This document shows, piece by piece, positions 1-7,538 of a DNA stretch of 7,538 bases. The position numbers were made by a program, and so were the translations under genes. This DNA is from a virus. Taxonomy: Duplodnaviria; Heunggongvirae; Uroviricota; Caudoviricetes. Below the pieces are notes generated by a model. That model searched no databases and had not been told where the DNA came from. It saw only the letters and a list, made by a program, of their open reading frames with translations. Where the stretch lies: positions 1-7,538 of the IMG/VR virus record IMGVR_UViG_2529292734_000008. One strand, given 5' to 3'. Within the stretch, counting starts at the first letter, position 1; each line of letters begins with the position of its first letter.

Positions 1-523
1 TTACCCGTTCTGTGCGGATCACTTTCAGGGCGCTGCTCACCAGTTCCAGTTGTTCTGCGCTGACTTCCCCCAGATAATCCAGCTCACCGCCACACTCCGG
101 GCAACAGCTTTCTTCAGGCTCCAGGCGGTATATCTCACGGGGGAGATGTGCCGGTAACGGACGACGATGGCGCGACTGTCGCAACTGGCGGGGAACCAGT
201 GGGTCATCCTCACGCCCACTGTAACGATCGCTTTCCTGCTCGCGTTGTTTCAGCAGGGCTTCAGCCTGTTCAACCTCACGACGCAGTTTTTCAGAACGGG
301 TTCCGAACAGCATCCGGCGCAGTTTTCTATCTGAGCCCGCAGATGCTCTATTTCTCGCTCATCTTCTTCGATCTTTTCTTCGGCACGTGCCAGTTGCAGA
401 GCGCAGGAAGGCCTCCGTCTCTTCAACCAGACTCAGTTGCTGGTCTTCCTGACGGAGGGCTTCAGCCTGCTCAGAGAGCAGCCTTTCCAGCTCAGCGATG
501 CGAATGAGGTATTTCTGACTCAT
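1..523 (-). CDS. tnpC: IS66-family transposase TnpC, N-terminal part (3' end outside window); reading frame appears interrupted
   Basis: ATG at 523-521 gives MSQKYLIRIAELERLLSEQAEALRQEDQQLSLVEETEAFLRSA. A coiled-coil segment LARAEEKIEEDEREIEHLRAQIE then lies in the +1 frame, and the long segment KLRRMLFGTRSEKLRREVEQAEALLKQ...CCPECGGELDYLGEVSAEQLELVSSALKVIRTERV returns to the ATG frame. Read straight from the ATG, the frame hits TGA (plus 359-361) after 54 codons. Confidence 0.75.
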
Positions 524-553
524 GGCCGTTTTTATAATCCGGCCCGGCGTTTT

Positions 554-904
554 TTACAACATTGTCAGTGCGTTAAGGCGGGATGTTTTTGGCTGACGCC
601 AGTCCAGCTTATCGAGGAGCATTGCCAGTTGCGAGCGGGTAATGGATATCTTACCGTCACGCACCGCAGGCCAGATAAACTGACCTTCCTCAAGGCGTTT
701 GGTGAACAGGCACAGACCATCAGCATCAGCCCACAGGATTTTAATCGTGTCTCCCCGTCGGCCACGGAAGATAAACAGGTGACCGGAGAAGGGGTTATCA
801 TCCAGCACATGCTGTATCTGCTCCCCCAGACCGTTGAAGGATTTACGCATATCAGTAACGCCGGCAACGAGCCAGATACGGGTACCTGATGGGAGTGAAA
901 TCAT
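554..904 (-). CDS. tnpB: IS66-family accessory protein TnpB (orf2)
   Basis: 116-aa ORF MISLPSGTRIWLVAGVTDMRKSFNGLGEQIQ...GHLFIFRGRRGDTIKILWADADGLCLFTKRLE, which matches the characteristic IS66 Orf2 sequence as I recall it. It sits between tnpA and tnpC. Confidence 0.85.
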   Translation of the reverse strand: MISLPSGTRIWLVAGVTDMRKSFNGLGEQIQHVLDDNPFSGHLFIFRGRRGDTIKILWADADGLCLFTKRLEEGQFIWPAVRDGKISITRSQLAMLLDKLDWRQPKTSRLNALTML

Positions 905-1338
905 CGTCCCTCCCGGTCAGCTCACGGATCAACACCGTGAGCAGCTCTGGTGAAGGATTTTCCAGCATCATTTTACCGTAATGGAATTCCACATGGCAGG
1001 AAGCTGCACAAGCAACTGATAATGCCTCCGGAGCAGGAGCATCTGTAGCACAGCGCGGGGGGTCGATAAGTTCCACTGGAACCAGAGTCGGAGAGGCCGG
1101 AAAAGATTGTGATACTGTAGGGCCTACAATAGTTGGAGGCATTCTACGAGAAAATACGTCCTTCTCTTTGCCAGAGGCGTAGCCATTTAAAAATCAGGTT
1201 GTTATCAACGCCATGTTCCCGGGCCAGTTGTGCAACATTGGCATTTGGTTTCGAAGCCAGTTCAACCATATGAAGTTTAAATTCATTAGAAAATATCCGG
1301 CGGGTTCCGGAGCGCCAGTCTGTAGGTTTATCCATCAA
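852..1338 (-). CDS. tnpA: IS66-family TnpA (orf1), present as two ORFs in different frames (1338-1144 and 1142-852); possibly frameshifted
   Basis: First ORF MMDKPTDWRSGTRRIFSNEFKLHMVELASKPNANVAQLAREHGVDNNLIFKWLRLWQREGRIFS (HTH-like) stops at TAG 1146-1144. Second ORF starts at ATG 1142 in another frame (MPPTIVGPTV...LLTVLIRELTGRDDDF...). The junction lies at the T4 run on the coding (minus) strand (A-run 1151-1154 on plus). Whether the native gene is continuous is from memory and unverified. Confidence 0.55.
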
Positions 1339-1449
1339 TAGAACTCCGTCTAATTTAGAAGGAGCTCTAATTTAGTCTGCAAGGAGCAGGTGTTACAGAC
1401 GGCATTGGCTTTACGCTTACGATTATTCATACTTCGTTTCTCCTCTTGA

Positions 1450-1839
1450 TCAGGCGGCTGCACCCGCCGTTTTCTCGTACTTACTGATAGTGATCTCGAC
1501 CTTCCCTTCCGGGATAACCGGTCCCCACTCCACCAGCATTCTTTTCACCTGACTGTCGTCTTCCCACACCCCCGCGTGGGTCAGGGCGTCAAACAGCGCC
1601 TTGTTATAGTTGTCCAGATCGCGGATCCTGTTATCCGGAGGAAACAACACGATCTCCACTGAAGCAGGTGCCGACGTTGGTTTCGGCAGACGACGTAACT
1701 GCTCAACTATTGCTGCGCACGCCGCGCTCTGGAATTTTCGCCCCGCCGCGCTTATCAGGCTCTTACCAGCAAACGCCCCTTTGTTGGGGTGTCGCCAGTA
1801 CGTGTTCACGCTGGGCGGAAAAGGCAGGATCAGCTTCAT
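1450..1839 (-). CDS. rusA: RusA-family Holliday junction resolvase (crossover junction endodeoxyribonuclease), lambdoid nin-region type
   Basis: 129-aa ORF with PPSVNTYWR...RIRDLDNYNKALFDALTHAGVWEDDSQV, resembling the RusA signature including the acidic RDLDN motif. Its ATG overlaps the stop of the upstream gene (ATGA). Confidence 0.85.
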   Translation of the reverse strand: MKLILPFPPSVNTYWRHPNKGAFAGKSLISAAGRKFQSAACAAIVEQLRRLPKPTSAPASVEIVLFPPDNRIRDLDNYNKALFDALTHAGVWEDDSQVKRMLVEWGPVIPEGKVEITISKYEKTAGAAA

Positions 1840-2162
1840 ACTTTCAGGCCCCTCTCATGTAACCAGTGGGTTGCACGCAGCCTTGCGTTTTCCTCACCGG
1901 CAAGCAGTGAGCGGATAATCCCGACCGCCTCGCTGTCGTCGTCCTTCACCGCGGTATGAAGCGTGATGCCCCGGGCCACGCCACGCTTTATCGTGATGAC
2001 GCCTTTTTTCTCCAGTGCGCGAAGATGCTCCACCGCTGCATTCACTGAACGGTATCCCAGCATGGTTGCCACCTCCTGATTGGTTGGCGGGAAGCCACGT
2101 TCTTTCTGATAAGAAATCAGCATATCCAGCACCTGCTGCTGGCATTGAGTTAACGTCGTCAT
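1836..2162 (-). CDS. LexA-like DNA-binding protein (LexA N-terminal winged-HTH domain only, no S24 peptidase domain)
   Basis: 108-aa ORF MTTLTQCQQQVLDMLISYQKERGFPPTNQEVATMLGYRSVNAAVEHLRALEKKGVITIKRGVARGITL aligns by eye with E. coli LexA residues 1-70 ([69 protein letters not shown]). The protein ends about 35 residues later with no Ser/Lys protease module. ATGA overlaps at both ends. Confidence 0.75.
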   Translation of the reverse strand: MTTLTQCQQQVLDMLISYQKERGFPPTNQEVATMLGYRSVNAAVEHLRALEKKGVITIKRGVARGITLHTAVKDDDSEAVGIIRSLLAGEENARLRATHWLHERGLKV

Positions 2163-2812
2163 GCCGCCATCTCCCTGACCAGTTTTTCTGCCTGCTGGCG
2201 AACCTGCGCCAGAAAGGCCTCACCACATGCCTCAAGTTCATCGCGCCCGATGTAGCTGATTGCCGGTCCCTTCCAGGTCTTGTCGAAAACAGCAATAGCA
2301 CCAGCGAAGAAAGCGCCTGTCGGCACCTGCTTCTCATCCTTCGGGATAAACCAGGCAGGCAGTTCAAAACCAATACGCCCGCGAATAAAAGCAATATGAT
2401 CTGCATCTTCCGGCCACCACACTTCGCTGGTGGCAGCTTTGATCAGGAAAACATAGCGCCCGCCTTTATCACGCATGGCACTGGCATGCTTCATGATGTA
2501 ACGCATGCCGGTGATGTATTGCCCCTCATGCTGGCTGGCGCGGCTGTATGGGGGATTACCAAAGGCAGCACCTTTAAGCTCCGCAAGGCGTTCTGACCAG
2601 TCATGCGCCAACGCGTTGTCTTCCGCCGTGTAATACGCAGCACATTTGGCGTTATCACCGTCAGTAAACAGATCCAGAACAAACGGGCCAAACAGAGTGT
2701 TAATTCCCCAGAAAATGTTGTCCGGCGTGCGCCACTGATCGCCCACTTCCTTCAGTTCATGGGCTGGTTTGTTCCGCAGTTCCGCCAGCGCCTGGCAATA
2801 TTTATTACTCAT
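2159..2812 (-). CDS. Phage N6-adenine DNA methyltransferase (Dam-like orphan MTase)
   Basis: ORF contains the motif-IV sequence FGNPPYS (NPPY) and an overall phage N-6-adenine MTase-like sequence. The likely start is ATG 2812-2810, overlapping the upstream stop as TAATG, with GGGGG just upstream. The ORF track extends to a GTG at 2845. Confidence 0.8.
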   Translation of the reverse strand: MSNKYCQALAELRNKPAHELKEVGDQWRTPDNIFWGINTLFGPFVLDLFTDGDNAKCAAYYTAEDNALAHDWSERLAELKGAAFGNPPYSRASQHEGQYITGMRYIMKHASAMRDKGGRYVFLIKAATSEVWWPEDADHIAFIRGRIGFELPAWFIPKDEKQVPTGAFFAGAIAVFDKTWKGPAISYIGRDELEACGEAFLAQVRQQAEKLVREMAA

Positions 2813-3306
2813 TAAGCCCCCACGTAATTCCCTGAGAGATACCACTCTTCACCTGATGCAGCCCGCTTACTGCTTTTCCGTAAACACAGTTCACGACGTG
2901 CCAGAAAATTGTTTCGTTCTGGCTGGGAGTGGCTTTCACGGAATGCCGCCATCCACACCGTTGCAGCACGACGGTATAAGCCCCTGGACTCCAGTTCTTC
3001 CGCCTGGCGGGTCAGGCACAAAATCACCCGCGGGTCGTTAGTGCCGACATAGAAATTGCGCACAGGTCTGGTTTCACGAACTGGTTGTGGTTCCGGATCC
3101 TGCGCTCTCTCAGTCAGGCGCGGGAAATGTCTGTGTGTATCTCCTTCACAACGGTGAGCCACACGCCCACTCTGACGTAACTTGCTTGCTGACTGCAGAA
3201 CGCGCTGCCGTGAGTAACCTGCAAAAGCATCCGCAATGTCTCCGGAAGTACAGCCCGGATGGGCTTCAATGAATTTCTGAACGTCATTCAAAAGACTCAT
3301 GCTCAC
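2812..3306 (-). CDS. Phage regulatory protein, winged-helix-like N-terminus with PerC-like C-terminal region (putative)
   Basis: 164-aa ORF translationally coupled at both ends (ATGA with the replication gene stop; TAATG with the MTase start). The C-terminal segment LESRGLYRRAATVWMAAF resembles the conserved core I recall for PerC/Pch-family activators; this assignment is from memory and is tentative. Confidence 0.55.
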   Translation of the reverse strand: MSMSLLNDVQKFIEAHPGCTSGDIADAFAGYSRQRVLQSASKLRQSGRVAHRCEGDTHRHFPRLTERAQDPEPQPVRETRPVRNFYVGTNDPRVILCLTRQAEELESRGLYRRAATVWMAAFRESHSQPERNNFLARRELCLRKSSKRAASGEEWYLSGNYVGA

Positions 3307-4244
3307 CCCCTGAATCCTGCCGGGATCTGGCTGTAGTCCACATTGTCGTAACTGGCTTTGAAGTACGGGTCTTCGCGTTTTTCTGTGTACGTGCTGACGG
3401 ACGGCGATAAGCGCAGGGAAAGCTCATCCCATTTTTCCCGCAGCTTCGACGGGCTGAGCACGTTACGGCACCAGAACGGATCGCGGCTGACGCGGCTGTA
3501 CATCTCGCAGATTTGTTTGTGAGTACGACCATCCTGCACACACATCAGGCGAATTTCGTTTGCCCAGGCTGTCCAGTTCGGTTCTTTGGGACGAACCACC
3601 TCGCCGTCACATTCGGCAGCCTGCTCGTACAGGGCGATGATTTTTTTCCAGAGCCACTGTGCGCAGGTCAAATCATCCTGCGTCCCCCACTGGCGCTTTT
3701 TAGGGCTGAATACAACCGCATCAGGATGGCGAGTTAAAAAATCCTGTTCAGCCGTCTGCGTGTCCGGTTGCGAAGCGTCCGGACGAGAAGGTTTTTTATC
3801 TGACGGATCATGTTTTGATTTTACTGACGGATCCCCGCCAGATTCTGACGGGTGAAAACCCGCTTTTTTGCCAGATTTCGACGCATCAAATTTTGACGGG
3901 TCAGATTTTGATGCGTCAGATTTTGACGGGTCAGAATCTGACAGTTGAGAAAATGCCGCTGCCTGAAGCTTCGCAACGTTAAGCTGATAAACATTCGACG
4001 CATTGCGGTTACCCTGGCGACGCGCCTTACGCGTTAACCAGCCTTCTGCTTCCAGCCGTGCGATAGCCGTTCTGACGGTACTCATCCCCGCGCCAATCTG
4101 ACGGGCAATGGTTTCAATTGATGGCCAGCACACACCTTCGTCATTACTGAAATCAGCCAGGCGGGCCATAATTGCCACGCTGGATAACTTCATGCCTGAT
4201 GCAGCGCAACCATCCCATACATAGCCGGTTAATTTAGTGCTCAT
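3303..4244 (-). CDS. Phage replication initiation protein (lambda O-like function): N-terminal HTH DNA-binding domain, low-complexity linker, C-terminal domain
   Basis: 313-aa ORF. The N-terminus ([70 protein letters not shown]) is typical of phage replication-initiator HTH domains. The central linker SDSDPSKSDASKSDPSKFDASKS is encoded by tandem DNA repeats. SD GAGGT lies 5 nt upstream of the ATG. Confidence 0.8.
   Translation of the reverse strand: MSTKLTGYVWDGCAASGMKLSSVAIMARLADFSNDEGVCWPSIETIARQIGAGMSTVRTAIARLEAEGWLTRKARRQGNRNASNVYQLNVAKLQAAAFSQLSDSDPSKSDASKSDPSKFDASKSGKKAGFHPSESGGDPSVKSKHDPSDKKPSRPDASQPDTQTAEQDFLTRHPDAVVFSPKKRQWGTQDDLTCAQWLWKKIIALYEQAAECDGEVVRPKEPNWTAWANEIRLMCVQDGRTHKQICEMYSRVSRDPFWCRNVLSPSKLREKWDELSLRLSPSVSTYTEKREDPYFKASYDNVDYSQIPAGFRG
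3798..3950. repeat. Putative replication origin: about 8 iterons with 10-bp core TGAYGSRTCA inside the replication-initiator gene
   Basis: Core copies at about 3801, 3825, 3846, 3880, 3895, 3910, 3925 and 3940, the last four at exact 15-bp spacing (GATTT-TGACGGGTCA). Flanking T-rich tracts at 3791-3797 and 3864-3869. The position matches the lambda arrangement where ori lies within the O gene linker. Confidence 0.6.
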
Positions 4245-4592
4245 GACCGACCTCTATTTCCCTGAATTTACGACGAAACTGTTCGAGCGGACTGAAGCAT
4301 TCATGCTCATAACCTTCGCGGAGGTAGATAACCCGTTGTGTTTCCGGCTCCCAACGAATGACTCTGACGGGCACTCCGTAGTGATCTTTGAACCAGCGGT
4401 TAACTTGTCGCAAAGGACTGTCTCCTTCTGCCGGTTGAAATCACCCACAGCCCACTCTGCAAAGCTGTGGGTTACAATTTCCCTGTCACCTGGTACATTC
4501 ACTGCATAGCAATATTCCACCTTCGCTTTTCCACCCGGAACAGGAAGCGCAATCAGTTGCGAGCGACGGTAGTGTGTTGTTAAACTGTTCAT
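4234..4592 (-). CDS. Hypothetical phage protein, apparently frameshifted (N-terminal part in one frame, protein-like C-terminal part in another)
   Basis: The track ORF 4592-4254 starts [51 protein letters not shown] and then degenerates into a Ser/Thr-rich tail. From 4440 down to TAA 4236-4234 a second frame encodes [68 protein letters not shown]. The start overlaps the upstream gene stop as ATGA. Confidence 0.5.
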
Positions 4593-4957
4593 GCGTTAGT
4601 TTCTCCACAGTCACGACACGCCACGGCGCCCGGAGCTGCACACTCGCGGGCGTCATTACTTTCTGAAATGCAAAAAATTTTGTAGACCAGTGCTGCATGC
4701 TCCTGCAGCTTCGAAATTGAGAGGTAGAGCTCGTCATTAATTGCTGTCTTCTCATGCGGTTCCACTACACCGTCTTCGATTGCTGAACGAATCTGTTTTG
4801 AATAACTGCCGATCTGTTCAATGACTTCCAGCAGACGCTGGTTAATATCGGCGTTGTCCACATCCTCGACGTCAGGAAGAGACACAAAGACGCCATTTGC
4901 AGACTGCGCCACAGCATCAGCAATGAAGTGAGTTCCACCAGCACGTTGCAAAATCAT
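4589..4957 (-). CDS. Hypothetical phage early protein (122 aa, predicted helical)
   Basis: ORF with ATG at 4957. Its stop overlaps the downstream gene start (ATGA at 4592-4589). It lies between the cII-like and replication genes in the same operon. No family recognised. Confidence 0.55.
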
Positions 4958-4978
4958 TGCCCATCCCAGCGGGAAAAT

Positions 4979-5185
4979 CTAATCGCCATCGGCACGAAGG
5001 CGGTTAAATAATGCGTTCTCTGTTACATCCAGCCAGTCAGCAGCTTCAGCGTAACCCCCCGGCAACGCTGCGATAGTTTTTCTGACAGCTTTCACGTACC
5101 ACTCAGGCTGTTTGTCTACTTTCCAGTGATGCTTACCCACGGTTAGCCTCATCGTTCTGTGGTTTCTGTTAATCGATTTATCCAT
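4979..5185 (-). CDS. CII-like / YdaT-like HTH regulatory protein (putative), ending at an amber codon
   Basis: HTH-like segment GYAEAADWLDVTENALFNRLR at the C-terminus, in the position of lambda cII (immediately downstream of cro). The start is uncertain: ATG 5185 overlaps the cro stop, with alternatives at 5197 and 5152; none has a strong SD. The ORF ends at TAG 4981-4979. Confidence 0.45.
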   Translation of the reverse strand: MDKSINRNHRTMRLTVGKHHWKVDKQPEWYVKAVRKTIAALPGGYAEAADWLDVTENALFNRLRADGD

Positions 5186-5378
5186 TAGATTTTTCATAAA
5201 GCTCAGGTTTAAATGGCAACCGTCCGCAAGTTCTATATGCAGCTTCTGCTGCACGTCCTTTTGGAATTAACTGGCCCGGACGGTTTCGCCACTGATAAAC
5301 GGCTTCAGTTGTTATGCCGAAAAAAGCAGCAACTTTCTCAATACTGCCGAAGTAGCTTTCGATATCGTCAGTTGTCAT
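5178..5378 (-). CDS. Cro-like transcriptional regulator (small HTH protein)
   Basis: 66-aa ORF MTTDDIESYFGSIEKVAAFFGITTEAVYQWRNRPGQLIPKGRAAEAAYRTCGRLPF with an HTH motif (VAAFFGITTEAVYQWR). SD GGAGGG lies just upstream of ATG 5378. It is transcribed divergently from the repressor gene. Confidence 0.7.
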   Translation of the reverse strand: MTTDDIESYFGSIEKVAAFFGITTEAVYQWRNRPGQLIPKGRAAEAAYRTCGRLPFKPELYEKSNG

Positions 5379-5388
5379 ACGCCCTCCA

Positions 5389-5455
5389 AACTAAGTTTTA
5401 TTAGATGCTAATTACAAATCTATCTTTGGTCAATAAAAACTAAGATTACTTAGTA
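5389..5455. promoter_or_regulatory. Divergent immunity control region (OR-like): two 14-bp inverted-repeat operator candidates and a PR-like promoter for cro
   Basis: CTAAGTTTTATTAG (5391-5404) and CTAAGATTACTTAG (5440-5453; perfect 5-bp arms CTAAG/CTTAG). On the minus strand, -35 TTGACC (5433-5428), a 17-bp spacer and -10 TAGCAT (5410-5405) precede the cro ATG. The first operator overlaps the -10/+1 region. Confidence 0.55.
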
Positions 5456-5475
5456 ATTAAAGAAATGGTGCTCCT

Positions 5476-5985
5476 ATGGAAACGGTTGGTCAGCGTATAA
5501 AAGCTCTGAGAAGAGTTACCAGAACGTCCCAGAAAGAATTGGGTAAATTTTGTGGAGTAAGCGACGTTGCTGTGGGGTACTGGGAGAAAGACATCAATAC
5601 CCCTGGTGGGGAGGCACTTTCGAAATTAGCGAAGTTCTTCAATACGTCAATAGATTACATTCTTTATGGTGCTGAGTTTGAAGGCAAACTCGTCACAAAC
5701 ATGCGCAGAGTTCCTGTAATATCGTGGGTTCAGGCTGGGCAGTTTACTGAGTGCAGGGCAGCAGAAGTGTTTAGTGAAGTGGACAAGTGGGTAGATACAT
5801 CATTAAAGATTGGTGATAACTCATTTGCATTAGAGGTTAAAGGTGACTCCATGACTAACCCTAATGGCCTCCCAACAATACCAGAAGGCGCAACAGTGAT
5901 TGTAGATCCAGATGCAGAACCTCGTCATGGAAAAATAGTCATCGCTCGACTTGATGGAACAAACGAAGCTACAGTAAAAAATTAG
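5476..5985 (+). CDS. CI-type prophage repressor (XRE HTH + LexA-like S24 peptidase domain), truncated by a frameshift; remaining C-terminal codons continue in another frame to 6101
   Basis: N-terminal HTH (QKELGKFCGVSDVAVGYWEKD) and S24 catalytic Ser motif GDSM. The ORF ends ...ARLDGTNEATVKN*. The adjacent frame encodes KKLVIDGPQKFLVPLNPRYPNIPINGNCLIIGVVKGVQYEL* (to TAA 6099-6101), which matches the lambda CI C-terminus pattern [35 protein letters not shown]. The break is in the A6 run 5976-5981. Confidence 0.85.
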   Translation: METVGQRIKALRRVTRTSQKELGKFCGVSDVAVGYWEKDINTPGGEALSKLAKFFNTSIDYILYGAEFEGKLVTNMRRVPVISWVQAGQFTECRAAEVFSEVDKWVDTSLKIGDNSFALEVKGDSMTNPNGLPTIPEGATVIVDPDAEPRHGKIVIARLDGTNEATVKN

Positions 5986-6115
5986 TCATCGATGGCCCTC
6001 AAAAGTTTTTAGTGCCATTAAATCCTCGGTATCCCAACATCCCTATCAATGGTAATTGCCTTATCATTGGTGTAGTCAAAGGAGTTCAATACGAACTCTA
6101 AGACCTCTCTTCTCT

Positions 6116-6183
6116 AACTAAGGCACCGAACTAAGAAAAGTTTGGTGTTTTCTCTTGCCATAATAACTAAGTTAAGTTAGATT
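6116..6183 (+). promoter_or_regulatory. OL/PL-like element: repeated AACTAAG half-sites, a 14-bp operator-like site and a sigma70-like promoter pointing rightward
   Basis: AACTAAG at 6116-6122, 6129-6135 and 6165-6171. CTAAGTTAAGTTAG at 6167-6180 matches the OR motif. -35 TTGCCA (6155-6160), 17-bp spacer, -10 TAGATT (6178-6183). Confidence 0.45.
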
Positions 6184-6261
6184 TTATGTCAAAGATAACG
6201 AACAGGCAGGACGCCCACGAAGTAGCCGCCTGGGGCATATGAAGTCCAGGATGATTCGTTA

Positions 6262-6290
6262 GCAACAAAAAAGCGCCCTACAGGACGCTT
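6262..6290 (-). terminator. Intrinsic terminator-like hairpin with U-tract, minus-strand sense
   Basis: Minus-strand RNA would read AAGCGUCC-UGUA-GGGCGCUU followed by UUUUUUGUUG (stem 6271-6290, A-run 6267-6272 on plus). On the plus strand the same hairpin has a C-A mismatch and no downstream U-tract. Confidence 0.5.
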
Positions 6291-6291
6291 A

Positions 6292-6303
6292 GCTCTTTAA
6301 CAA
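6292..6303 (+). promoter_or_regulatory. boxA-like antitermination element (12/12 match to the rrn-type boxA core GCTCTTTAACAA)
   Basis: GCTCTTTAACAA at 6292-6303, immediately after a hairpin and about 45 nt upstream of the ATG of the first plus-strand gene downstream of the PL-like promoter. A weak AU-rich hairpin CAAGTAACTGATAACTTG follows at 6319-6336. Confidence 0.45.
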
Positions 6304-6348
6304 TCTGGTCCCCATCAACAAGTAACTGATAACTTGAGGAGATGTGAA

Positions 6349-6555
6349 ATGCACAAAACAGAACCCAAAATCGTCGCGCCTGGCTACACAGATGAGGAAA
6401 TTTATGAGTGGATGACAAAGAAGCTGGCAGCTATAAACCAGCTTCGTGAAGTGCTGTCTTATCGACAGGAAACAATAGACTCCTTAAAAAAACTGGATCA
6501 GGAAATCACGGTTTTATCACAGGATGTTACTTTAGATATTGTGCAGACAAATTAG
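6349..6555 (+). CDS. Hypothetical small protein (68 aa), first gene of the rightward PL-like transcript; AT-rich accessory gene
   Basis: ATG at 6349 preceded by a strong SD GAGGAG (6336-6341). The track ORF begins at an earlier in-frame ATG at 6334. The translation MHKTEPKIVAPGYTDEEIYEWMTKKLAAINQLREVLSYRQETIDSLKKLDQEITVLSQDVTLDIVQTN is predicted helical and acidic. No family recognised. Confidence 0.6.
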   Translation: MHKTEPKIVAPGYTDEEIYEWMTKKLAAINQLREVLSYRQETIDSLKKLDQEITVLSQDVTLDIVQTN

Positions 6556-6961
6556 GATCCCATTCATTTTCGTCAAAATCATCAAAGTGATGAATTTGTG
6601 ATCTCCAGTCTCGATAATCTAAAAATTTCTGGGCGGTTACGCTTATTTTATCAAGTGTGAGTTCATCCTGAATTGAAAGAAGAAGTTCATCAAATTTCAT
6701 CTCATTAATCTGTTTTGGCATCCAGTGATGCTTCATCAGAATAAGGTGAACCAGAGCCTTTTTCCCATTCAACTGATTATAGGGAGTGCCGAATTTCTTC
6801 CGGTGCTCATGTAAGACAAGGTCCAAAAGAGTAAGTAATGTTGCCCTTGATTCAACTTTGCTTATTTCGACTGATGACACTACCCCACTGATTTCAATGC
6901 CCCGATACTTTCCAACATTTTCACAGTGGGATTTGTACAGCGTATAGATATTACCGGACAT
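6527..6961 (-). CDS. Hypothetical protein (144 aa), moron-like accessory gene transcribed convergently to the PL-like operon
   Basis: ORF with SD AAGGA (revcomp of plus 6962-6975) upstream of ATG 6961. The region looks AT-rich compared with the flanking phage backbone. Its 3' end overlaps the 68-aa gene by 29 bp. No family recognised. Confidence 0.7.
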   Translation of the reverse strand: MSGNIYTLYKSHCENVGKYRGIEISGVVSSVEISKVESRATLLTLLDLVLHEHRKKFGTPYNQLNGKKALVHLILMKHHWMPKQINEMKFDELLLSIQDELTLDKISVTAQKFLDYRDWRSQIHHFDDFDENEWDPNLSAQYLK

Positions 6962-6976
6962 TTCTTTTCCTTTTGC

Positions 6977-7028
6977 GTTGTTGGGGATAACCAGATTAAC
7001 CGAATCCTTGTTGTTGGGGAATAACCAG
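6977..7028. repeat. Two 18-19 bp direct repeats GTTGTTGGGGA(A)TAACCAG separated by about 15 bp, in the upstream region of the 144-aa gene
   Basis: Copy 1 at 6977-6994 and copy 2 at 7010-7028, nearly identical, located 16-67 bp upstream of the minus-strand ATG at 6961. Confidence 0.5.
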
Positions 7029-7245
7029 GTCCACCTCGCCTGATGTGGCTAAAAGCAGGCACATAACAGCTAAGTATTTTCAACCAGAGAGAATCCTTAG
7101 CGTTGTGGTGAATGCGGCTCAGCGCACGCGGGTTAAGGTTGAGGCTGACAGTCGACCTTCTGTGGATACCCACCCGCCTGGTGTGCAACCTTCGCCAGGC
7201 ACCGGGAGGCACCCGGCACCACAACTTTATGCTGTGTGTAGTCTT

Positions 7246-7292
7246 GGCGGTACCAGCTTGTACCCTTGCTTCCGGCTGGTACCGTCCTTTTT
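7246..7292 (+). terminator. Rho-independent terminator-like hairpin (10-bp perfect stem CGGTACCAGC/GCTGGTACCG, 17-nt loop, T5 tract)
   Basis: Stem 7248-7257 pairs with 7275-7284, followed by TTTTT at 7288-7292 on the plus strand. Confidence 0.6.
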
Positions 7293-7297
7293 ACAAA

Positions 7298-7379
7298 ACA
7301 GAGAAGAGCATCACCGGACGACGGGCTCATAACCCAATCCATCCGGGCGGCAGTCACCGCAGGTGTTCTTCTCTGTTTT
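7298..7379 (+). other. Long-range helix (about 15 bp including G-U pairs) enclosing about 49 nt, followed by a UUU run; structured leader element
   Basis: 7298-7312 pairs with 7362-7376 (ACAGAGAAGAGCATC / GGTGTTCTTCTCTGT). It lies about 50 nt upstream of the next gene's ATG. Confidence 0.35.
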
Positions 7380-7429
7380 GTGGAGAAACTAACCGACCTT
7401 GCAGGGTCGATATGATGAGGAGCAGCAAA

Positions 7430-7538
7430 ATGGCTAGCGAACGCAGTACTGATGTGCAGGCATTTATCGGGGAGCTGGACGGCGGCGTATTTGAAACCAA
7501 AATCGGCGCAGTTCTCAGTGAAGTCGCTTCCGGTGTGA
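7430..7538 (+). CDS. Hypothetical protein, 5' partial view (continues beyond window end)
   Basis: ATG 7430 with SD GAGGAG (7417-7422) 8 nt upstream. Translation MASERSTDVQAFIGELDGGVFETKIGAVLSEVASGV... is open to the window end. No family recognised. Confidence 0.55.
   Translation, partial: MASERSTDVQAFIGELDGGVFETKIGAVLSEVASGV

Follow-up and report, generated by a model that had tools for sequence, protein, structure and literature searches.

We describe a two-gene module in a Caudoviricetes genome fragment, IMG/VR record IMGVR_UViG_2529292734_000008, of which positions 1 to 7,538 (7,538 nt, hereafter the window) were analysed. The window is part of an SfV/SfIV/CPS-53-type lambdoid prophage of Escherichia coli. 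A small gene of 68 aa and a large gene of 144 aa converge in it and overlap at their 3' ends, and the two genes are conserved as a module across prophages. The large gene opposes a lytic operon in which the small gene comes first, whether the operon starts at the early-left promoter PL or follows a Q-dependent terminator ahead of a holin gene. The region that carries the pair is a horizontally mobile cassette in a variable pocket of the phage genome.

Features of the module and its surroundings (coordinates within the window; ORF, open reading frame):

6117-6171, no strand assigned: candidate OL operators, three ACTAAG half-sites, recognised by hexamer clustering
6155-6183, plus strand: predicted PL, TTGCCA-17 nt-TAGATT, from a promoter scan (9/12 matches), overlapped by an operator half-site
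6197-6260, plus strand: conserved PL leader, left flank of the cassette, 98.4% identical to SfV (L002 3001-3064), after which homology ends
6261-7030, no strand assigned: exchangeable accessory cassette (moron), 770 nt; SfV homology breaks at 6260 and is back at 7031
6271-6290, minus strand: outer terminator-like hairpin, AAGCGTCC-TGTA-GGGCGCTT then TTTTTTG, centroid -11.5 kcal/mol; on the plus strand just 5' of boxA
6292-6303, plus strand: rrn-type boxA GCTCTTTAACAA, an exact 12-mer in the PL transcript ahead of the small gene
6349-6555, plus strand: small gene, 68 aa, first ORF of the PL operon, ATG at 6349, phrog_1744
6420-6445, minus strand: inner terminator-like hairpin, 9-bp stem, dG -15.6 kcal/mol, z -3.8, inside the small ORF
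6527-6555, both strands: coding overlap of the convergent ORFs, 29 nt (29-107 nt in homologues)
6527-6961, minus strand: large gene, 144 aa, opposed to the PL operon, NF033230 and phrog_5286
6977-7035, minus strand: two direct repeats, core GTTGTTGGGGA(A)TAACCAG, about 25 nt each, upstream of the large gene at the right cassette edge

Conserved pairing of the two genes

Hidden Markov models (HMMs) of both families were run over 191 loci (numbered L001 onwards) from Escherichia, Shigella, Salmonella, Klebsiella, Enterobacter, Serratia, Proteus and Providencia. They returned 189 large-gene matches, representing 42 distinct large proteins down to about 20% identity, and a convergent small-family match was present in 185 of these 189 loci. 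One of the four exceptions lies at a contig end, two (Sakai Sp4 and L022) have weak motif matches, and one (L003) is truly without a partner. All of the homologues that we examined at 20-72% identity, drawn from E. albertii, Serratia, Enterobacter, Proteus, Providencia, the Klebsiella phage KPP5665-2, the Salmonella phage ST64B and IMG/VR contigs, have a convergent ORF at or over their 3' end that bears the motif EP-x-I/F ... E-I/L-x-E/D-W-L/M. Both reading frames are kept among homologues to about 20-30% identity, with many synonymous changes, and the identities of the large and small proteins co-vary over the loci (r = 0.84).

The N-terminal motif of the small protein (EPxI/F...G.T..E.I/L..W.M/L) is kept to E 3e-7 in the most distant versions, and in three distant loci it is doubled: a 67-73-aa gene is followed by a 190-202-aa 'mid' gene that carries the motif in its C-terminal half and likewise overlaps the large gene. 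Towards its C terminus the small protein varies, with a frameshifted tail in E. albertii, and L021, L023 and L024 have an extra ORF between the small and large genes. In the Sakai prophage Sp4 (L020), a 169-aa ORF at 29168-29677 on the plus strand (phrog_8304) runs antisense over most of ECs1072 and carries the N-terminal small-protein motif. The large-gene homologues of ST64B (L025, AY055382; 3281-3715) and KPP5665-2 (L026; about 2850-3288) are unannotated in their phage records.

In the window, the small gene has a Shine-Dalgarno sequence, GAGGAG, at 6336-6341, 7 nt ahead of its ATG (a mechanical alternative start, TTG at 6334, would give 73 aa), and that of the large gene, AAGGA, lies at 6968-6972 on the minus strand, 6 nt ahead of its ATG. 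An earlier model-made reading of the sequence (the first-pass annotation) had described convergent, 3'-overlapping genes of 68 and 144 aa; their coordinates are confirmed, with 29 nt in common. The ribosome-binding site, upstream direct repeats and minus-strand terminator that it assigned to the large gene, together with the boxA, were likewise all found.

Position and orientation in lytic operons

The module occupies two main settings. In about 88 loci it lies in a PL context, flanked on one side by an S24-type repressor and on the other by the early-left genes; in about 96 it lies in a Q-holin context, between a Q-type antiterminator and the holin and endolysin genes. With cI and yfdP as markers in the PL context and Q, holin and endolysin in the Q-holin context, the flanking markers lay opposite in strand to the large gene and followed the expected order in all but two of 188 loci; these two have one extra same-strand marker match each, which we assumed, without checking, to be a cross-hit. 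A third context is that of the family namesake in Sakai Sp4, where the large gene, between the cII-like gene and O of the PR operon, once more faces against the operon.

The small gene is the first ORF after PL in L021 and L024 as well as in the window, and in L007, L009, L015, L025 (ST64B) and L026 (KPP5665-2) a terminator hairpin directly precedes its Shine-Dalgarno sequence. Ahead of the small gene in ST64B there is a 10/12 promoter (TTGAAA-16-TATGAT), a short leader and a terminator, an arrangement that looks like PR'/tR'. That PL transcription would run antisense through the 144-aa gene, as the first-pass annotation had suggested, follows from position, and no locus examined has the large gene in the same direction as the lytic operon.

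A mobile cassette downstream of the predicted PL

From 5400 to 7538 the sequence shares 99.9% identity with Escherichia phage vB_EcoS-569R4, and from 6197 to 7538 it shares 98.4% with Shigella phage SfIV. The module is common: 406 of the 5,426 complete E. coli genomes contain a place where coverage of a 1-kb query (6100-7100) reaches 80% or more. On the minus strand the window carries the early-right operon, with cro (5178-5378), a split CII-like gene, an O-like gene (3303-4244), PerC, Dam, LexA-like and RusA genes, and on the plus strand cI begins at 5476.

The promoter scan gave the predicted PL as the sole good plus-strand promoter of the area. The window contains six ACTAAG hexamers, all of them in two clusters, one in the cI-cro intergenic region (5390-5454) and one at 6117-6171, the latter overlapping this promoter; 2.3 hexamers were expected, and 3 of 200 shuffles reached six. 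Sequences equivalent to the predicted PL stand at the matching place in SfV and L004 (TTGACA-17-ATAATG) and in L017 (TTGACC-17-TAGATT). Judged from these sequence features, 6155-6183 is the likely PL with its operators, and the occurrence of ACTAAG clusters only at OR and at the predicted PL suggests that cI controls the small gene. The first-pass annotation had set the site between cI and the early-left operon, like that of rexAB; the cassette instead lies downstream of the predicted PL, so both genes would be inside the early-left transcription unit. The cI gene of the window (5476-6100) is itself cut to 169 aa by a 1-nt deletion in an A-run at about 5975 and is without the end of its S24 peptidase domain; an intact 208-aa repressor is present in E. 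coli NZ_CP018991. Should the deletion be genuine and not a sequencing error, PL may be unrepressed in this strain.

The AT-richness of the pocket, claimed in the first-pass annotation, is borne out: GC content is 39.3% in the gene-pair region, 40.0% in the cassette (6261-7030), 54.5% in 7031-7538 and 50.1% in the window as a whole. Its status as a variable accessory site also stands, with SfV, mEp460_4F5 and PhiR29_1 bearing unrelated cassettes between the same flanks. SfV has orf33 and an unannotated convergent 81-aa ORF at this place, mEp460_4F5 a 122-aa helix-turn-helix gene and PhiR29_1 a 242-aa minus-strand gene; neither family HMM matched these replacement cassettes, and no PADLOC system rose above noise in them. 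Conversely, the same cassette (at least 95% amino-acid identity, 83 loci) occurs next to five types of flank on the repressor side and four on the operon side. As is usual for morons, it deviates in base composition and is polymorphic for presence among related phages, and the predicted hairpins 6445-6420 and 6290-6271 would provide its own terminator.

The SfV pair has a geometry like the one described here, with orf33 (plus strand, 98 aa) overlapped at its 3' end over 83 nt by the 81-aa ORF at 3305-3550 on the minus strand (L002 3091-3550), and an unrelated sequence. We considered it as a distant homologue of our pair and ruled this out on the failure of both family HMMs to match it; convergent overlapping pairs may be a recurring design of this pocket. 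In the Proteus prophage L013, a SIR2 + DUF87/HerA defence pair (PADLOC SIR2, E 1e-203; 5892-8453) lies about 1.4 kb from the module, and sister loci have another gene in that spot.

Protein families and predicted structure

The first-pass annotation had recognised no family for either protein, and both in fact belong to catalogued families. The large protein matches NCBIfam NF033230, 'ECs1072 family phage-associated protein', at 157.8 bits (cutoff 70) over profile positions 2-142 of 142, and phrog_5286 at E 1.5e-90; the small protein matches phrog_1744 at E 6e-35 over positions 1-68 of 68, and its longer versions from Q-holin loci match phrog_3501. The function of all four families is listed as unknown. 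In the SfIV genome paper both genes (ORF-35 and ORF-36) were described as unique and without clear function.

An exhaustive phmmer search gave 65 representative clusters of the large family, nearly all of them single-domain proteins of about 145-155 aa. In an alignment of 50 members H72 and W134 alone are invariant, with R54, L64, G66, A69 and W80 nearly so. The AlphaFold2 model of the large protein is all-helical (pLDDT 87, pTM 0.84). The small protein is acidic (pI 4.8), with a helical heptad-like stretch after its N-terminal motif. The maximum 19-aa Kyte-Doolittle hydropathy is 0.84 for the large and 0.29 for the small protein, well under that of a transmembrane segment, and both are predicted to be soluble.

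Remote-homology and structure prediction, which the first-pass annotation had called for, identified no related known fold or family. Searches of Pfam, PADLOC, PDB sequences and PDB profiles with both proteins and 50 homologues yielded nothing useful; the defence HMMs of PADLOC-DB v2 matched neither protein and none of 50 family members; and fold searches with the predicted structure of the large protein matched no known fold. Recurrent weak matches had raised an HD-domain identity, which we rejected since no HD motif is conserved, and a HEPN-like Rx4-6H motif was dismissed because R54 and H72 are 18 residues apart.

The palindrome TGGGATCCCA at about 6553-6562 supplies the W-D-P codons of the 'EWDP' motif, which is invariant in the large protein. 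In longer versions of the small protein (80-93 aa) it also codes for 'PWDP' on the other strand; here the small ORF stops just short of it.

Transcription signals of the large gene

A hairpin followed by a T-run, on the large-gene strand and within 220 nt of the stop codon, was found in 85 of 89 distinct modules; the other strand gave 24 of 89 and shuffled sequences 18 of 89. Its stem sequences vary by lineage while the pairing is kept. In the window this is the inner hairpin, by reason of which the large mRNA would probably end inside the small ORF, before the ribosome-binding site and boxA of the latter, and probably pairs with only the 3' part of the small ORF. This hairpin was overlooked in the first-pass annotation, whose proposal that the 3' untranslated region of the large gene is fully antisense to the small gene, its ribosome-binding site and boxA is accordingly doubtful. 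The outer hairpin, kept together with boxA in L017 and recognisable by eye in L004 (where it is mismatched and was missed by the scan), would be a backstop against read-through into PL and cI.

Upstream of the large gene, copies of GTTGTTGGGGA lie at 6977-6987 and 7010-7020, and the direct repeats are kept in L004 and L017 despite protein identities of 72% and 58%, respectively. Alignment of upstream regions across genera disclosed no shared promoter.

A boxA carried by the cassette

The boxA sequence GCTCTTTAACAA corresponds to 12 of 13 bases of the E. coli rrn boxA, with the core TGCTCTTTAACAA; 0.08 such matches (at most one mismatch) would be expected by chance. It is present in L001, L004, L005, L006 and L017 and is conserved in three cassette variants. 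The window and E. albertii have it preceded by the hairpin, as does L017, which has kept it despite a different leader and a 58%-identical large protein. The Q-holin versions, the more distant PL versions and the SfV cassette have no such sequence. By this comparison, boxA belongs to the cassette and not to the phage backbone.

A Nus-factor boxA is proposed because the PL transcript, beyond the small ORF, crosses about 500 nt that are untranslatable in that sense. It would shield the transcript from Rho over this antisense stretch, so that expression from yfdP to int survives the insertion. The Q-holin versions would need no boxA, since there a Q-modified polymerase would do the reading. The signal shares with rrn leaders a boxA core with a hairpin just upstream. 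It differs from a lambda nut site in that no boxB follows boxA, the sole hairpin being upstream, and no N-like protein is found, the first ORF encoding an acidic product. SfII, SfV and SfIV are reported to be without N (SfIV paper).

Expression of homologues in lysogens

The Salmonella gene STMMW_20121 is a homologue of the large gene in the ST64B prophage (HMM E 7e-42; 32% identity by tblastn). The gene spans 435 nt, its start lying 162 nt from holin, and it overlaps STMMW_20131 (sb50), the annotated small gene, by 71 nt. Like the gene in the window, it is a true large-family member with a convergent small partner, antisense to lytic genes; it differs in lying between Q and holin rather than beside cI, and in being without boxA and without upstream direct repeats. 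Differential RNA sequencing assigned STMMW_20121 its own transcription start, antisense to the lytic genes (Owen et al. 2020, PMC7067206). In Salmonella lysogens it was expressed at 61-269 transcripts per million (TPM) in 16 of 17 conditions; across conditions cI ranged over 65-520 TPM, holin over 0.3-33 TPM and Q over 0.8-4.6 TPM (PMC7067206, Table S5). The authors treated STMMW_20121 as a single candidate, 'accessory or regulatory', with no mention of partner or function. In a Sakai microarray study, ECs1072 is among the genes changing at the growth transition, so that its signal is at least detectable without induction. These were the only reports that our literature search on the families and homologues turned up.

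The first-pass annotation had suggested mutually exclusive expression in the lysogenic and induced states. The lysogenic half of this is upheld by the Salmonella homologue, active in lysogens from its own promoter; strict exclusivity is unconfirmed by transcript data.

Proposed function and alternatives

These observations would fit together if a cassette inserted at the first position of a lytic operon encodes a two-gene module of the following kind. The 144-aa ECs1072-family protein would be made in the lysogen from its own promoter, by transcription that reads against the lytic operon and halts at the hairpin within the small gene, with the 6290-6271 hairpin behind it. The 68-aa protein would be the first product of the cI-controlled PL operon, or of the Q-dependent late operon in other phages, and would therefore be made only once lytic transcription starts. 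Termination-resistant lytic transcription would then cross the large gene head-on, producing RNA antisense to all of it, and the small protein would bind or neutralise the large protein. The large product would protect the lysogen but harm the phage's own lytic growth, as in superinfection exclusion or abortive infection, with the small protein as cognate self-immunity. Exclusion or abortive infection is our leading guess because a product switched off at lytic onset most simply interferes with phage development. We prefer this reading, a mobile moron whose lysogen-made large product is countered by the small protein and by head-on transcription, while giving it somewhat less than an even chance; a role in defence is plausible, and the two proteins may be antagonists. 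A more far-reaching version, which we think rather unlikely, is that the module represents a new class of prophage switch, in which a lysogen effector of new fold blocks incoming and potentially resident phages, its antidote is the first gene of the lytic operon that hosts it, convergent transcription reinforces both states and, in the PL version, a portable boxA cancels polarity.

Several observations weigh against the lysogen-made effector and its lytic antidote. Neither protein resembles any defence, toxin, antitoxin or regulator family in sequence or fold, and no phenotype is on record for any family member. The homologue of L003 (56% identity) does without a small partner, and in Sakai and L022 the partner is represented by weak motif matches alone. 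At a threshold of 9/12, no consensus sigma-70 promoter was found upstream of 6961 in the window, nor was one found at 9/12 for the large homologue of ST64B. Further, the annotated small gene STMMW_20131 is itself expressed at 23-258 TPM in lysogens (PMC7067206, Table S5), a number that is ambiguous because the sb50 annotation is 5'-extended over the PR'-like promoter and a short terminated leader, and may reflect a short constitutive transcript; we count it neither for nor against expression of the small protein. Lastly, STMMW_20121 falls under peroxide and nitric oxide, a change too big for a small induced fraction and hence not diagnostic; we had considered these shifts in ST64B (large gene down, small gene up) as evidence of reciprocal expression and rejected them.

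An alternative places the function of the module in cis. Convergent transcription of the large gene, perhaps together with its protein, would block leaky or read-through transcription from PL or PR' and so stabilise lysogeny or tune induction, with no foreign phage as a target and with the small protein as an anti-regulator or timing factor. The lambda PaQ and oop antisense RNAs offer a precedent. The module always lies just past a lytic promoter or terminator and ahead of the first lytic genes, in three operon contexts, and the direct repeats upstream of the large gene suggest regulated transcription; in ST64B, transcripts of the small-gene region stop short of the holin gene (23-258 versus 0.3-33 TPM), and 'accessory or regulatory' was left open by the authors of that work (PMC7067206). 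However, related phages have no module at this site, or unrelated cassettes, which puts it outside the core switch, its low GC and mobility are typical of accessory cargo, and pure transcriptional interference needs no two proteins kept at the amino-acid level over wide divergence. We regard a cis-acting role as doubtful, though less so than either of the remaining possibilities. That the genes have no functional link, the small ORF being the first lytic gene in its own right or a spacer whose translation protects the lytic transcript from Rho, and the large gene an unrelated lysogenic-conversion gene, would explain why L003 has the large gene alone, why L021, L023 and L024 have a further ORF between the two, and why the small protein has a variable C-terminal tail, frameshifted in E. 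albertii. Such hitch-hiking seems improbable to us, given that the pair moves as a unit among three operon contexts and many phage backbones, that the small-protein motif is conserved so far and even duplicated in the 190-202-aa ORFs abutting the large gene, and that the identities of the two proteins co-vary.

A toxin-antitoxin or addiction module would likewise account for two small co-inherited genes with a convergent 3' overlap in a prophage, a common location for such systems. One product would be toxic, the other, with the 3'-overlapping antisense RNAs, would restrain it, and the prophage would be stabilised or the cell arrested; the overlap, including a terminator embedded in the partner's coding sequence, makes extensive RNA duplexes possible. 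Yet the hydropathy values are not those of small hydrophobic peptides or membrane proteins, both partners are conserved soluble proteins, unlike the products of type I systems, with which they have only the 3'-overlap geometry in common. The genes are convergent and not co-transcribed as in type II systems, no Pfam domain was present in either protein or in 50 homologues, and no toxin or antitoxin family was matched in the Pfam and PADLOC searches. A partner driven by a lytic promoter would moreover be repressed in the lysogen and leave the 'toxin' unguarded. We rate this the least likely of the explanations and give it very little weight.

Relation to known systems

A conceptual parallel to the proposed lysogen-made effector with a lytic antidote is BstA/aba of prophage BTP1, a lysogen-expressed factor beside the repressor locus that harms its own phage's lytic cycle and is offset by cognate self-immunity (PMC8585504). 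There is no sequence relation, and defence has been demonstrated for BstA and is proposed for the present module. BstA itself is a large abortive-infection protein that binds DNA, with an antidote that is a DNA element within the gene rather than a second protein of the lytic operon. In the sieB/esc/sas system of P22 and with lambda sieB, an early-left exclusion gene is paired with escape of the phage itself through a small cognate product and antisense RNA; there PL and sieB have the same orientation, Esc arises in frame from within sieB, and SieB is associated with the membrane. The module described here consists of two separate convergent genes for soluble proteins, with no homology to that system detected. 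Lambda rexAB lies between cI and PL and is co-transcribed with cI, and RexB is a polytopic membrane protein; our module resembles it in bringing accessory genes with probable lysogenic expression close to cI. It differs in lying downstream of PL, in having its probable lysogen-expressed gene on the other strand, and in encoding two soluble proteins, neither with a PADLOC match. Against the RexAB/SieB type, with its membrane-associated effector and a gene co-oriented with cI or PL, stand the absence of transmembrane-level hydropathy and the opposite strand of the large gene, and of the rexAB/sieB likeness drawn by the first-pass annotation only the position holds, the solubility of both proteins and the location downstream of PL telling against the rest. 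The prophage type I systems txpA/RatA and bsrG/SR4 likewise consist of convergent genes whose transcripts pair at their 3' ends, with a small membrane peptide as toxin and a non-coding RNA as antitoxin; both partners here are conserved soluble proteins.

Both gene families and the lysogenic expression of one homologue were already on record. What appears to be new, and apparently undescribed in the searchable literature, is the obligate convergent pairing, the rule that the small gene comes first in three operon contexts, the terminator embedded in the partner and the boxA carried by the cassette. Our findings fit into a broader interest in prophage morons, which are a main source of new anti-phage systems and lysogenic-conversion traits and for few of which it is understood how self-poisoning is avoided in the lytic cycle. 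If the antidote model is true, it would provide a general design rule for finding the self-immunity partners of prophage defences, as well as an example of a mobile cassette with its own antitermination signal; if it is false, the module remains a clean natural example of head-on transcription at the entry of a lytic operon. Specific and cheap experiments are feasible because the architecture is unusually explicit.

Other features of the window

An IS66-family element occupies 1-1420 (TnpB_IS66 at 554-904 and HTH_Tnp_1 at 1144-1338, both on the minus strand) and stands in for the prophage DNA past rusA. Homology to the intact prophage begins only at 1421, so the KilA-N / DUF968 / Q side is interrupted. 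The CII-like gene (PF06892 / ymfL; 4589-5254, minus strand) is split into ORFs at 4979-5254 and 4589-4957, and it carries a 'frameshifted' annotation in a reference genome too. Within the O-like replication gene, four copies of a 15-nt iteron at 3872-3935 probably form the replication origin; these copies gave rise to a spurious 'mir-5880' match in Rfam.

Between the cassette and yfdP, positions 7072-7295 of the plus strand resemble the structured RNA STnc100 of Rfam at 43.4 bits, just missing the gathering score of 47, and end at about 7246-7290 in a strong hairpin that has a U-run (dG -27, z -4.4). STnc100 is related to the prophage small RNA PasD (2026 preprint), and the RNA seen here may be a terminated leader or a small RNA of the early-left operon. 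It is followed on the plus strand by a long inverted repeat, read by eye, with arms ACAAAACAGAGAAGAGCA at about 7296-7313 and TGTTCTTCTCTGTTTTGT at about 7366-7383, and then by a further small hairpin in the leader of yfdP, an arrangement that is kept in SfV.

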